DNA from: a virus
Lineage: Duplodnaviria; Caudoviricetes
DNA length: 64,000 bases
Virus record (IMG/VR): IMGVR_UViG_3300025133_000020
Strand: one strand, 5' to 3'
In this document: positions 13,432 to 17,649 of the stretch, piece after piece
How the letters are laid out: every line of letters begins with the position of its first letter
Numbering within the stretch: the first letter of the stretch is position 1
The notes under the pieces: generated by a model
Database searches by the model: none
What the model was told of the DNA's origin: nothing
Seen by the model: only the letters and a program-made list of their open reading frames with translations
Made by a program: the position numbers and the translations under genes

Positions 13432-13581
13432 GTGAATAAGGTTGAACCAATATCATTGGAGTTATCTGACCACATGAAGCAGATTATAGCTATGTGGGGC
13501 ACAGAAGAGGAACGATATCGATGGATGTTAGAGCAATGTAGAGTACCAAGAAAATACTTAGGAAGTAACAAAAATAAATAG
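13432..13581 (+). CDS. Small hypothetical protein (49 aa, not in ORF track)
   Basis: GTG start, MNKVEPISLELSDHMKQIIAMWG...RVPRKYLGSNKNK; fills the gap between ORFs. Confidence 0.5.
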   Translation: MNKVEPISLELSDHMKQIIAMWGTEEERYRWMLEQCRVPRKYLGSNKNK

Positions 13582-13584
13582 AAA

Positions 13585-13929
13585 ATGGAAGAATTAAACG
13601 GTAGAGCAGAAATGGAAATGCGTAATGCTGGTAAGGATATCATGGCTAAAGCTAAAGCTAAAAAGGAAGCGGAAGCTAAGGAGAATAAGACATTCGTAAG
13701 TCCAGATATTGGTCTTACAGAACCACCAACCTTTTATTTAAACCCTAAGATGCATGCGATATGGTTCGCAATGTATGTTTGGGATAATACGATAACCCCT
13801 GCGGATTTACAACCAGAGGAACCAAATGATAGAAGTTTGGTGGCTGGGGTGAAATATTGGGAATTAAAGAAATCGTATGAAGCTTTTATAGATAAAAATA
13901 ACACCTTAACAACAGAAGACAATGAGTAA
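13585..13929 (+). CDS. Hypothetical protein
   Basis: ORF track, operon context. Confidence 0.6.
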   Translation: MEELNGRAEMEMRNAGKDIMAKAKAKKEAEAKENKTFVSPDIGLTEPPTFYLNPKMHAIWFAMYVWDNTITPADLQPEEPNDRSLVAGVKYWELKKSYEAFIDKNNTLTTEDNE

Positions 13930-14065
13930 ATTTAAAGAATTCACAAACAAAGTAGCATTAAAATTCGCCAATACCTTTTCAGGTCCTAGGCTAACTGCTG
14001 CAATAACCGTATTAGTAATCTTTGCGGTTCTAGGTATAGTAATACTGGTTAGGTCATTAATATAA
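13922..14065 (+). CDS. Small membrane protein (47 aa, not in ORF track)
   Basis: MSKFKEFTNKVALKFANTFSGPRLTAAITVLVIFAVLGIVILVRSLI; one TM helix. Confidence 0.6.
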   Translation: MSKFKEFTNKVALKFANTFSGPRLTAAITVLVIFAVLGIVILVRSLI

Positions 14066-14070
14066 TTGCG

Positions 14071-14595
14071 ATGGGTAATTCATTAGACAAACAATATCAA
14101 ACCTTACTCCAAGACATCTTGGATAACGGGCACAACAAAGGGGATAGAACTGGTACTGGTACCAAGTCGGTATTCCCAAGAATGATTACACATAACATGG
14201 CTGAGGGTTTCCCTCTTTTAACAACCAAGAAGATGTACCATAAAGGTATCTTCACTGAGCTATTATGGCTCCTACGTGGTGATACCAACATTAAGTGGTT
14301 AATTGAGAATAACTGCAACATCTGGGTAGGAGACGCTTATAAGAAGTATTGCAAAGAGTGGGGTGGGGAAAATAAATATAGCGTTACTGGAACAATGACT
14401 TTGGAAGATGGTACTATTGGTGGTACGAGTAGGAAATTTGATAAAGAAGAGTTCACTGAAAAGATTAAAACCGATGACGCATTCGCTGAGAAGTGGGGAG
14501 ATTTAGGGAAGATATATGGCGCTCAGTGGCGCAACTGGAATGGTAAATCTAATGACGAACTTTATGAGGATTATTTAAAACGTGTGGGTAAATAA
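14071..14595 (+). CDS. thyA: Thymidylate synthase, N-terminal fragment
   Basis: DRTGTGT, FPLLTTKK, ELLWLLRG, NIW, DLGKIYGAQWRNW; stop after an 18-aa tail. Confidence 0.92.
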   Translation: MGNSLDKQYQTLLQDILDNGHNKGDRTGTGTKSVFPRMITHNMAEGFPLLTTKKMYHKGIFTELLWLLRGDTNIKWLIENNCNIWVGDAYKKYCKEWGGENKYSVTGTMTLEDGTIGGTSRKFDKEEFTEKIKTDDAFAEKWGDLGKIYGAQWRNWNGKSNDELYEDYLKRVGK

Positions 14596-14615
14596 TGTTT
14601 CCCCATTTATTACCA

Positions 14616-14623
14616 TATTTATA
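14616..14623 (+). promoter_or_regulatory. Late-type promoter TATTTATA for the HNH gene and thyA C-fragment
   Basis: Lies in the 47 nt between the thyA-N stop and HNH ATG 14643. Confidence 0.6.
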
Positions 14624-14642
14624 TATGATAAACAATGGAAAT

Positions 14643-15335
14643 ATGGACTATAGAAAAATTCACGACCAAATAATTGATAGGGCTGCAATTAGAGACGTAA
14701 ACGGTTATACCGAAAAGCATCATATCACACCAAAATGTATGGGTGGTGATGATAAACCAGATAATTTAGTTAAATTATACGCAAGGGAACACTTTTTAAT
14801 ACATTGGCTACTTCACGAAATGTATCCACAAAACACAGATTTAAAATATGCGTTTTGGTCTATGTGTCGTTCATCCAATAATCAAGAGCGATATGTCCCA
14901 TCATCAAGGGTATATGAATACGCTAAACATCAGATGTTAGAAGTATGGCAAAAGTTTAAGCCATCGGATAAACAGATAACTTCCATTAAAAAACGTTTAA
15001 CAGGAACCAAATGGTTTCATAAACCTGATGGTAGTCATTTAAGGGCGTTCCCAAATGATAATAGAATTAAAGAAGAAGGTTGGCTGATTGGTAGGTTTGG
15101 TGGTAAGAAATTGTCACATAAAGCTAATAAAAGTAAACTTGAAAAATATCAGGGTAAAAAATCAGCAAAAACATCAAATAAAAGGTGTTCGATAAACGGT
15201 GTTGAGTTTGAATCAGCTAAAGCCGCTTCCGAGGCTATTGATATGAATGAATATTCCCTTAGATGGATACTACAGGGTAATGGGAAATCACAAAAACATA
15301 AAGAAAAATATAAAAATTGGTATTATATAACTTAG
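14643..15335 (+). mobile_element. mobE: MobE-like HNH homing endonuclease inserted in thyA
   Basis: MDYRKIHDQIIDRA...EKHHITPKCMGGDDKPDNLVKLYAREHFLIHWLL...AFWSMC closely follows the T4/Aeh1 MobE N-terminal pattern. Confidence 0.8.
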
Positions 15336-15339
15336 AGAC

Positions 15340-16083
15340 ATGAAACATACACACGAAGACGGTACACCATTCAATAAAGAAGAATTCCTACATATGCTAG
15401 AAATAGATAAAGAATTTAAGGGTGAGTTTGGTACTAAAGGTGTTGACCAAATAGCCAAATCATTAAACACACTTATCAACAATCCCGACTGTAGACGTAT
15501 CTTGGTTAACGCTTGGAATGTGGGTGAGATTAAGAATATGACCTTACCACCATGCCACTTCGGATTCCAATTATGGACAAGAGAGTTATCAGCCTATGAA
15601 CGGGAGAACCACTTTGCTTATGTGATGAATGATATGACCAACCAAGAACGATGTGAATTACATCCAAATCACCGTGATGAAGATGTACATGAGAAGATGG
15701 ATGTGGAAGGTGTACCTAGACGAGCAATATCGTTAACATGGCAACAACGTTCGTGCGATTTCCCACTAGGTATACCGTTCAATGTAGCATCTTATGGCGC
15801 TCTACTTATGATATTTGGTGAGTTAGTTAATATGGTTCCAGAAACCCTAACAGGGATGTTAGGTGATTGCCACATTTATCGTAACCAAATAGAGGGTGTT
15901 AATGAGCAAATTAGTAGAGACTCGTTTGACTTACCTAAACTAACGATTAGTACAGAATTATGGAATCCAGAGAACGTACTTGGTACTAATTGGGACGAAA
16001 TCATAAAGGGTATTGAGATAGATGATTTTATATTAACCAATTACGAATCCCACCCACTAATTAAATATCCACTATCTAATTAA
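15340..16083 (+). CDS. thyA: Thymidylate synthase, C-terminal catalytic fragment
   Basis: VDQI, NPDCRRILVNAWN, LPPCH (catalytic Cys), QRSCDFPLGIPFN, GDCHIY, IKYPLSN. Confidence 0.92.
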   Translation: MKHTHEDGTPFNKEEFLHMLEIDKEFKGEFGTKGVDQIAKSLNTLINNPDCRRILVNAWNVGEIKNMTLPPCHFGFQLWTRELSAYERENHFAYVMNDMTNQERCELHPNHRDEDVHEKMDVEGVPRRAISLTWQQRSCDFPLGIPFNVASYGALLMIFGELVNMVPETLTGMLGDCHIYRNQIEGVNEQISRDSFDLPKLTISTELWNPENVLGTNWDEIIKGIEIDDFILTNYESHPLIKYPLSN

Positions 16084-16132
16084 TTTAGGTCTACCCTTTA
16101 ACTTTTAGGTGTAGGGTTATATTTAAGTTATA

Positions 16133-16858
16133 ATGATAGGAATTTACAGAATAAAGAATATTAGTAACGATAAATGTTATTACGGTTCTTCGAAAAATAT
16201 TGAGGTCAGGTGGCGAAACCATATAAACAAACTCAACAAGGGTAGCCATGAAAACGTACTACTACAAAGGGCTTGGGATAAGTACGGTGAGGGGAGTTTT
16301 ATATTTGAAGTCATCCAAGAGTGTGGGTTAAATGTGTTATTGGTAACCGAACAAAAATACTTAAACTCGAACCCAGCGTATAATATCGGGTTATGTGCTA
16401 GTGGGGGTGACAATATTACTAATCACCCTAATAAAGCGTTAGTGATTGCTAATATTAAACGTGGTTCGGCTAAATATCTTAATAGTTTAACACCAGAAGA
16501 ACGAAAAGAAAAATTCGGTAATACGGGGCACACAAATAACAACTGGCAAGGTGGTAAAACTTTTTGTAAATGTGGTAATAAGATAAATAGTGGTACAATT
16601 GAATGTATTGATTGTGTAGATAGGAGTGGTAGTAATAATTCATTTTTCGGTAAAAAACATACTAGAGAGACTAAAGATATAATAGCTAAATCTAGGAAGG
16701 GTAAATACCATGGGACACAAAATAACCCTATAATAGTAGATGATATAGAGTATAGGTCTGCTGGGGAAGCCTCCAAATTATTAAACATTCCAATGGTAAC
16801 TATTAGATGGAGAGTAAGGAGTGATAGTAATAAATTTAAGGATTATAAATATAAATAA
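16133..16858 (+). mobile_element. Free-standing GIY-YIG homing endonuclease with NUMOD3 repeats
   Basis: GIYRIKN...YYGSS...RW..H, EQKYL, FFGKKHTRETK; late motif TATTTAAG 16120..16127. Confidence 0.9.
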
Positions 16859-16859
16859 T

Positions 16860-16979
16860 ATGGAGTTAATACCATTAGATAGTAACCATAGGATGATACG
16901 AGTAGGCTTCGGAAAGAACAAGGGTATCTGGTTCTTTAGGCTTGACTTATGGTTCTTTGGGGTTAGATTTAAGAAATGA
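16860..16979 (+). CDS. Small hypothetical protein (39 aa, not in ORF track)
   Basis: MELIPLDSNHRMIRVGFGKNKGIWFFRLDLWFFGVRFKK; coupled to both neighbours. Confidence 0.5.
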   Translation: MELIPLDSNHRMIRVGFGKNKGIWFFRLDLWFFGVRFKK

Positions 16980-17260
16980 ATTATACAAACCCAAGCAACC
17001 CAGATTACGAAGAAAAGCCATCAGATTGGCTTAACGCTGCAATGATATTCAGCAGAGGCTTCTTAGTGGTATTACAAGAAGGTGGTGGTATCGTTATAGA
17101 TATGACACCAGAGATTAAAACTACTATGCCAGAAGGATTCCCCAGAGATGTGGATAAGTTATTGATATGCAAAGTGGACGATAAGATTCAAGTGAGGGAA
17201 TGTACTGATGATATTGCAGAAGGAACTCACGTAATGGTATTAAACGACAACCCAAACTAA
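16976..17260 (+). CDS. Hypothetical protein
   Basis: ORF track, coupled to folA. Confidence 0.6.
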   Translation: MNYTNPSNPDYEEKPSDWLNAAMIFSRGFLVVLQEGGGIVIDMTPEIKTTMPEGFPRDVDKLLICKVDDKIQVRECTDDIAEGTHVMVLNDNPN

Positions 17261-17649
17261 TGAAAGCTGTGATTGCCGTTAATAATTTAGGTTTCATCGG
17301 ATTAGATGATGAGTTACCATGGAAGAATTCCAAGGACTTTAAACACTTCAAGAAAATGACCATGGGTGGAGTCCTATTGGTGGGTTATAACACCTATCAG
17401 AAGCTTCCACCTCTCAAAGGTCGCACAATGCTATTGGATGATAGAGAAACTTTAATTGAAGATATAACTGACGTTGCGGATATTGACGATGTTTGGTGTA
17501 TTGGTGGTAAGAAGACTTATGAGAAGTATGTACCATGGTTCAAGGAGATTCACATATCACACATCGATGATAATACAATAGGGGATACAACGTTTCCTAA
17601 CCTAATTGGTCTTGACCCTCTTTGCGAGATTTTCAATTATCGTTTCTAA
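17260..17649 (+). CDS. folA: Dihydrofolate reductase
   Basis: IAVNNLGFIG...LPW...DFKHFK, VGYNTY, PPLKGR, CIGGKKTY, GDTTFP. Confidence 0.93.
   Translation: MKAVIAVNNLGFIGLDDELPWKNSKDFKHFKKMTMGGVLLVGYNTYQKLPPLKGRTMLLDDRETLIEDITDVADIDDVWCIGGKKTYEKYVPWFKEIHISHIDDNTIGDTTFPNLIGLDPLCEIFNYRF

Follow-up and report, generated by a model that had tools for sequence, protein, structure and literature searches.

A thymidylate synthase gene divided by an apparently mobile MobE-like endonuclease cassette in a Caudoviricetes phage

We describe a thymidylate synthase (TS) gene that lies in two pieces in a stretch of 64,000 nucleotides, hereafter the window, from the marine virus IMGVR_UViG_3300025133_000020 of the IMG/VR collection (Duplodnaviria; Caudoviricetes). 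An N-terminal fragment, thyA-N, is followed by a free-standing HNH homing endonuclease gene of the MobE type and then by a C-terminal fragment, thyA-C, which begins with an ATG of its own. It is highly probable that this is a real split, that the intervening DNA is a mobile cassette and that the enzyme consists of two chains. The present analysis goes beyond the first reading of the locus in that the split belongs to a large mobile family, the cassette carries conserved termini for both chains, and the endonuclease can be swapped or lost while the split stays.

The split locus and its unsplit relatives

The two halves make up one complete TS, because in the PF00303 profile of 266 positions the thyA-N product covers positions 1–107 (E 1e-34) and the thyA-C product positions 105–264 (E 1e-44). 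The best PDB matches of both halves are bona fide TS enzymes (E 4e-35 for thyA-N). According to the alignment offsets, R26, E63, W85 and Y149 of thyA-N correspond to R21, E58, W80 and Y94 of the Escherichia coli enzyme, and R52/R53 and C72/H73 of thyA-C to R126/R127 and C146/H147. The QRS-D, PFN and GD-H-Y motifs follow, and R137, S138, D140, N148, H178 and Y180 are further key residues of thyA-C. The residues diagnostic of TS are present in the window, namely the Cys of PCH, the dUMP-binding arginines, Asn and not Asp in PFN, and the Tyr in IYG. Dihydrofolate reductase (DHFR) recycles the dihydrofolate made by a true TS, and the DHFR gene adjoining thyA-C therefore agrees better with a true TS than with a hydroxymethylase.

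The thyA-N protein ends in ...YGAQWRNW followed by NGKSNDELYEDYLKRVGK and a stop (Table 1). The inserted ORF matches phrog_655 ‘homing endonuclease’ with an E value of 1e-39, and an HH...N...H motif is visible in its sequence. In a tblastn search it finds mobE and homing endonuclease genes beside nrdA in T4-like phages, with about 32% identity over 90% of the length and E values down to 2e-22; no Pfam entry matched it at E 0.01 or below. An alternative upstream ATG at 14595 overlaps the thyA-N stop, and the alignments of homologues begin at the start at 14643. The gap between the endonuclease gene and thyA-C is AGAC. The initial annotation had given this layout of thyA-N, 47 nt, HNH gene, 4 nt and thyA-C, on which the ORF list and the raw sequence agree. 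It had also described both halves as intact and in the same frame with PCH in thyA-C, and the inserted ORF as a MobE-like HNH; the common frame 1, the completeness of PF00303 across the halves, the phrog_655 match and the similarity to the T4-type MobE genes beside nrdA bear this out.

Contigs from two marine data sets cover the region. One of them, from data set X1, which may be the assembly sample of the window itself, bridges 14296–15453 and so contains the end of the N fragment, the HNH gene and the start of the C fragment. A megablast search against the phage collection returned no near-identical phage record.

Unsplit relatives locate the break. The TS is a single ORF in Flavobacterium phage immuto, the nearest isolate (423 aa), in two syntenic IMG/VR contigs, L002 (382 aa) and L003, in L018 (394 aa) and in P0002 (L033:2501-3712; 403 aa), the closest unsplit relative, whose TS body is 80–91% identical to that of the window at the nucleotide level in conserved segments. 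P0002 reads ...IYGKQWRNW-N-(19-residue loop)-TGG-VDQI..., and the window aligns with it through N157 in the N fragment and from T32 in the C fragment. Therefore, a native loop of 19 codons has been replaced by the tail, stop, spacer, HNH gene, 4 nt, ATG and head. The N-tail is absent in the unsplit relatives. The residues after YG also differ, being H/A-G or F-Q in split alleles (YG[HA]GWRNW, YGFQWRNW) and K-Q in unsplit ones (YGKQWRNW).

The codons that precede the break had been noted as atypical for this genome, and a count of codon usage confirms the impression. In the tract at 14515–14538, GGC accounts for 4% of Gly codons, CGC for 2% of Arg codons and CAG for 22% of Gln codons, and when every 8-codon window of the long plus-strand ORFs in the window is ranked by codon usage, the tract falls at the 0.04 percentile. 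It is probably, judging from its codons, a foreign flank of the cassette that was either co-converted or altered at the target site so as to immunize the allele. As a side observation, a contig of data set X4 encodes a bacterial-type TS without the small domain (WDEWADENG stands just before) and matches 14501–14538 at 34 of 38 bases; this may be a chance match at a conserved motif, and the codon choice at the left junction resembles that of such a gene. Contigs matching only 14190–14228 or 14501–14538 represent conserved TS motifs of other organisms and were set aside as evidence.

Table 1. Features of the split TS locus and its neighbours (positions in the window)
Feature	Position	Strand	Description
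thyA-N, N-terminal TS fragment	14071..14595	+	174 aa plus stop; frame 1
Left junction tract encoding YGAQWRNW	14515..14538	+	Codons rare in the genome
N-tail stub	14539..14595	+	18 extra residues NGKSNDELYEDYLKRVGK plus stop
Conserved spacer	14596..14642	+	47 nt; between thyA-N stop and HNH start
MobE-like free-standing HNH homing endonuclease gene	14643..15335	+	230 aa
thyA-C, C-terminal TS fragment	15340..16083	+	247 aa plus stop; frame 1; PCH catalytic Cys
C-head stub	15340..15441	+	thyA-C residues 1-34 (MKHTHEDGTPFNKEEF...GTKG)
Second free-standing homing endonuclease gene (GIY-YIG, I-TevI-like zinc finger, NUMOD3)	16133..16858	+	PF01541, PF22635, PF07460; phrog_314
DHFR gene	17260..17649	+	PF00186, E 6e-21; 1.2 kb 3' of thyA-C

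A single-chain TS might be restored from this locus by group I splicing, by a split intein or by ribosomal bypass, and the td gene of T4, which is the same gene, does carry a group I intron with the endonuclease I-TevI. For the window, we consider any such restoration extremely improbable. The absence of an intron and of an intein had been claimed from the outset, and both claims hold. First, an Rfam cmscan search of 13500–17500 at the permissive threshold of E up to 10 gave no group I intron and no credible RNA family, the three matches obtained being at chance level. The non-coding sequence flanking the endonuclease ORF consists of the 47 nt and 4 nt only, and the stop codon, as well as the ATG with its conserved N-terminus, is kept throughout the split family. 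Second, inteins contain blocks totalling about 130 aa or more, with Cys or Ser at the N junction and HN plus Cys, Ser or Thr at the C junction. The extra termini of 18 and 34 aa (52 aa in total) are far too short and do not have intein junction residues, the C side reading ...GTKG/VDQI, and no Pfam intein domain was found in the halves. Moreover, both stubs stay within the mature chain of a natural fused form, P0047, described below.

A family of split alleles and the mobility of the cassette

The same division is widespread in environmental phages and recurs in many related sequences from metagenomes. Among the best 120 matches of the N fragment, 116 share the tail end NGKSDDELYEDYLKKVK; the tail is 18 aa long with the consensus NGKSxDELYEDYLKKV. 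Among the best 120 matches of the C fragment, 77 are proteins of 200–300 aa, and all of these start with the 34-aa head (consensus MK[YH]THEDGTPFTKEEFLQKLKTDKEFNxEFGNKG) followed by IDQI. These fragments were drawn from distinct 90% clusters, and the catalytic residues checked are invariant in all of them (116/116 and 77/77). The order of N fragment, spacer of about 48 nt, HNH gene of about 230 aa, 4 nt and C fragment is the same on contigs of 280–309 kb and on smaller ones. In three of the loci, L022, L024 and L026, the ORF in the same slot is 69–74% identical to the HNH of the window and the spacer is nearly identical.

The spacer contains a late-promoter-like ATATTTAT at 14615–14622. With 22 occurrences in the window, where 9 would be expected, the motif is enriched, in agreement with the late promoter proposed earlier for the 47 nt. 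The spacer can also be folded into a hairpin, in which the outer stem pairs CAT (14604–14606) with the start codon of the HNH gene (14643–14645) and the promoter-like motif lies inside, on the loop side. In I-TevI and in mobE of phage Aeh1, the start is hidden in read-through transcripts and freed in late transcripts (PMC2988022), and by analogy the spacer hairpin over the HNH start may act as an expression control that would favour late synthesis.

The slot is not always filled by an HNH gene. A GIY-YIG endonuclease takes its place in L030, and the slots of L031 and L017 hold only ORFs of 78 aa and 89 aa, respectively, that belong to no known family, with the split kept. In L024 (3729–4004), an extra ORF of 91 aa, also of no known family, lies between the HNH gene and the C fragment in place of the 4-nt gap. 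A second split site in TS, called here site A, is located about 50 codons upstream of the one in the window (site B), inside the small-domain insertion. It is represented by L028:2947-4768, with a related HNH gene, and by L029:2806-4942, with a GIY-YIG gene; the N fragments are 109–111 aa. The HNH proteins of the two sites are 47–57% identical in the nuclease domain only, and the spacers are alike.

To describe the unit that moves, we compared the cassette with the surrounding TS bodies. Among L022, L024 and L026, nucleotide identity is 85–100% in the cassette compared with 45–80% in the TS bodies. The block of high identity starts at about 14500, in the YGxxWRNW codons, runs through the tail, spacer and HNH gene to the end of the head, and drops thereafter. 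At the protein level, identities are 67–100% for the tails, 70–89% for the HNH proteins and 49–75% for the TS bodies. X3, a marine data set from another study, matches 14566–15452 at 96–99.6% identity, and beyond this match its contig encodes a different TS body; it therefore holds the same cassette in another td background, with the right border at about 15452, just past the VDQI codons. When the TS C-bodies are arranged in a tree, the window clusters with P0002 and L002, which are both unsplit (SH-aLRT 99 and 98), and the split label requires at least 10 changes on well supported branches. Because the identity block is unbroken, X3 has it in another TS background and the split state is scattered, the unit that moves includes the stubs, whichever part of it came first. 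By these comparisons, the cassette appears as a mobile element that is present in some alleles, absent in close relatives and accompanied by co-conversion of its flanks.

This evidence bears on a history in which the split came first and the endonuclease was a later lodger, the short intergenic gap being a landing pad for endonucleases that come and go. In place of the HNH gene, the same tails and heads do occur with small unrelated ORFs (L017, L031) or a GIY-YIG gene (L030), and the stubs are under a selection, described below, that is independent of the endonuclease. There is also a precedent in Aeromonas phages 25 and 44RR, whose gene 43 is split (PMC2988022). However, the DNA block of high identity is unbroken across the tail, spacer, HNH gene and head, the whole block is found in another TS background in X3, and split alleles are dispersed across the TS-body tree. 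We thus regard the split-first order as unlikely, though the least unlikely of the rival histories, and prefer the insertion of a cassette that already contained the stubs.

A natural fusion allows another history to be weighed. P0047 (L032:3001-4197) is a single TS chain of 398 aa whose tail runs in frame into the head (...YLKKVKN-THEDGT...); its catalytic motifs are intact and a DHFR gene directly follows in L032. It may be a healed scar after loss of the endonuclease or a relic of the state before insertion. If it were a relic, the tail and head would be the halves of an older 50-residue insertion, arisen by partial internal duplication in an unsplit TS, into the middle of which the endonuclease landed, and the stubs would be ordinary co-converted exon flanks and not an adaptor borne by the element. 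P0047 itself, with its joined stubs, intact motifs and adjoining DHFR gene, speaks for this origin. Against it, P0047 is the only fused form among about 240 listed proteins; a search with the fused tail and head peptide against 50%-identity representatives gave 16 matches and no fused form, a poor count since the family collapses into few representatives. P0047 is also placed within a split clade of the TS-body tree, on a long branch with weak support, a position more in keeping with an in-frame deletion that later removed the endonuclease than with an older insertion. The older insertion is accordingly given a low probability, below that of the split-first order, and a cassette that brought its stubs with it stays the preferred history.

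Several side observations concern recombination around these sites. In P0247, a head-like segment is followed by the native GDAYKNY segment and then by a second helix, and in P0256 the DQI...NAWNVGEL block occurs three times with the tail at the end; these chimeras may be recombination scars at split sites or assembly artefacts. One contig of data set X1 skips 460 bases of the window (13624–14083), comprising most of the ORF at 13585–13929 and the ORF at 13922–14065. Data set X1 also holds a variant TS body, with 23 differences in 15536–15734, that reads like the unsplit L002 type; a single sample thus seems to contain relatives of both the split and the unsplit kind. A contig present in three marine data sets carries a match to the 3' end of the HNH gene (15301–15327, the KYKNWYY region), followed by 40 other letters and then by a match from 13697 on, which suggests that a related endonuclease is lodged upstream of the homologue of the 13585–13929 ORF in another phage. 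Finally, the GIY-YIG gene at 16133–16858 is a neighbour of thyA-C and lies outside the split. It is absent in the syntenic L002, and a GIY-YIG gene occupies the same position in L024; the 3' end of td is thus a second endonuclease hotspot.

The terminal stubs and the predicted assembly of the two chains

The stubs are under selection as peptides. For the 51 stub codons of tail and head, dN/dS is 0.03–0.17 with many synonymous differences, and therefore selection at the peptide level, and not just recent spread, explains their conservation. Tails and heads are retained in the endonuclease-free split alleles. This result also concerns the possibility that the halves are a decaying pseudogene and that another enzyme or the host supplies the dTMP. 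Its sole supporting point is that a second thyA or thyX may exist outside the 64-kb window, whereas the catalytic residues are invariant in 116 N fragments and 77 C fragments, both ORFs are intact, the stub dN/dS is low and DHFR is retained next to the locus. Decay is very improbable, and we continue with a functional two-chain gene.

The origin of the stubs was examined with profile searches, with E values calculated for a nominal database of 1e5 sequences and shuffled controls scoring below 5 bits. The head HMM matches the N-termini of the site-A C fragments (E about 1e-12) and also the native small-domain helix (TKEEFINKIKTDDEFAKKWGxLG), found in unsplit TS and in the N fragments, at E values of 1e-7 to 1e-3. 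In the same way, MAFFT misaligns the C-heads onto the native small-domain helix instead of the second copy. By its sequence, then, the head is recognizable as a diverged second copy of the TS small-domain helix. An origin of the tail in a native helix is tentative. With moderate confidence, the sequences indicate that the site-B cassette descends from a site-A split that moved about 50 codons downstream together with its flanking exon stubs.

We then considered how the two chains could be held together. The predicted complex of thyA-N and thyA-C scores 0.88 compared with 0.01 for the best of three controls, a result that the solved TS structures may partly explain; the mark used was reached by 51 of 78 solved complexes and by 2 of 108 mismatched pairs. 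At least 98% of the contacts are shared between the runs, and the pLDDT of the partner is at least 88. The confident part of the predicted interface includes residues 161, 164–165, 167–169 and 171–173 on the tail side and residues 3–4, 8, 10–11, 13, 16–17 and 20 on the head side. This break-point interface is the part of the model that solved TS structures could not have supplied. The residues are spaced as on helical faces and run in opposite directions from the break, as an antiparallel helical hairpin would give. In addition, the P0047 fusion indicates that the end of the tail and the start of the head can be joined directly. On this modelling, tail and head probably form a docking hairpin that holds the chains together. 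The original proposal of a two-chain TS, split by a free-standing MobE-like HNH gene in the manner of nrdA in Aeh1, is thus supported in silico by the contiguous unsplit relatives, the invariant residues and the predicted docking of the halves.

The best explanation of the locus is that a mobile homing endonuclease cassette replaced a surface loop of TS, the one that separates the YGxQWRNW motif from the DQI helix. The cassette would consist of an 18-codon tail with its stop, the 47-nt spacer, whose hairpin encloses a late-type promoter and pairs with the start codon of the endonuclease, the MobE-like HNH gene, the 4-nt gap, and a new ATG with a 34-codon head. TS would then be made as chains of 174 aa and 247 aa that reassemble non-covalently into the normal fold; as TS is an obligate dimer, the enzyme would presumably be an alpha2-beta2 assembly. 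The tail and head would form the antiparallel helical hairpin at the break, and in this way the cassette would itself mend the damage done by its insertion. The endonuclease would spread the whole unit, including the stubs, into intact td alleles of co-infecting phages, its putative cleavage targets, by double-strand-break repair. Later, the endonuclease may be replaced by another or decay, and the two-chain enzyme would persist. The role of the stubs as an adaptor is a tentative part of this scheme, to which we give somewhat less than an even chance. At the lower end of that range we place its extended form, a homing element with a portable docking adaptor. The adaptor would be a second copy of a helical hairpin of the target enzyme itself, pre-cut in its loop and brought in with the endonuclease at a new site; the element would have arisen at site A and moved downstream, and the broken enzyme would close up again by neither RNA nor protein splicing.

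Several points weigh against this explanation or parts of it. All evidence for this phage is in silico, and the activity of a two-chain TS is a prediction. The window covers 64 kb of a contig of about 213 kb, and a second thyA or thyX elsewhere on it is possible. The endonuclease-free split alleles and the fused P0047 are equally compatible with other orders of events. The TS C-body tree was obtained with a quick search and may be blurred by recombination within TS. The consensus spacer hairpin, at –12.5 kcal/mol, shows no covariation, and the predicted RNA fold of 14560–14700 is no better than that of shuffled sequences (z 0.48). The similarity of the tail to the native helix GDAYKxY(C/L)KK, which ends the site-A N fragments, is weak (p=0.015 in a profile test with shuffled columns), and the tail HMM gave no significant match to the native helix. 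Lastly, the output of the complex prediction lists interface residues and not pairs, and contact between tail and head is deduced from their matching numbering.

Known split genes and the significance of the TS family

Only a handful of splits by free-standing endonucleases are known, namely nrdA in Aeh1, the T4 topoisomerase and gene 43. The closest of these is the ‘genes-in-pieces’ ribonucleotide reductase of Aeh1, in which nrdA is split by mobE (Friedrich et al., 2007, as cited in PMC2988022). In both cases, a free-standing MobE-type HNH gene lies inside an essential gene of nucleotide metabolism, there is no intron or intein, and two polypeptides must reassemble. A further likeness, which the window would share by prediction, is an endonuclease gene that follows a late promoter and has its start covered by an RNA hairpin. 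Unlike in Aeh1, the target is TS and not NrdA, conserved and selected termini move with the element, a large family with endonuclease turnover is present in place of a single phage, and the activity of the enzyme is predicted.

The insertion of mobA in T4 divides the topoisomerase gene 39/60 (PMC2988022). As in the window, a contiguous enzyme gene is cut in two and the mobile unit comprises the endonuclease plus adjoining sequence. The present cassette differs in that it brings a stop, a start and two peptide stubs and involves no bypass. Bonocora et al. (2011) reportedly described the T4 mobA/gene 39–gene 60 cassette as carrying a 50-nt translational bypass element. In Aeromonas phages 25 and 44RR, gene 43 is divided into 43A and 43B (Petrov et al., as cited in PMC2988022), and the same split holds an endonuclease in one phage and a non-endonuclease sequence in another, comparable to L017 and L031. 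The enzyme is a different one, and the account of gene 43 cited there reports no conserved termini derived from a duplicated helix.

Two other systems provide instructive contrasts. The td gene of T4 is the same host gene exploited by a homing endonuclease; T4, however, repairs the interruption at the RNA level by self-splicing, whereas the window has no intron and the repair would be by protein assembly. Environmental metagenomes have also yielded essential genes that are fractured around a homing endonuclease gene and whose halves carry split inteins (Dassa et al., 2009, PMC2677866). Their products are ligated by trans-splicing; in contrast, the stubs of 18 and 34 aa in the window are not inteins, and the chains should stay separate. 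We found no report of a split or interrupted TS in the literature covered, which was incomplete and mostly without subscription journals.

Several features set the TS locus apart from these earlier systems, namely its new target, the large family, the turnover of endonucleases in a fixed slot, the second site and the natural re-fusion. Foremost among them are the conserved and selected stubs, which move with the element and stem from a helix of the enzyme itself, tentatively so for the tail. How the pieces of an enzyme split by an endonuclease reassemble is an acknowledged open question (PMC2988022), and the TS locus offers a natural series for it, with hundreds of diverged two-chain variants that contain an HNH gene, a GIY-YIG gene or no endonuclease, and with unsplit relatives as the empty site. 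TS is one of the best understood enzymes, and complementation of E. coli thyA makes the questions about the adaptor and the homing life cycle testable. In annotation, the halves are routinely called two ‘thymidylate synthase’ genes or taken for pseudogenes. The family raises the questions of whether an element can bring its own assembly adaptor, how invasion, decay and loss proceed when loss leaves a scar in the protein, and at which points TS tolerates breaks in its backbone. If the adaptor proves true, selfish endonucleases would have, in addition to introns and inteins, a third general strategy for neutralizing their insertion into essential genes.

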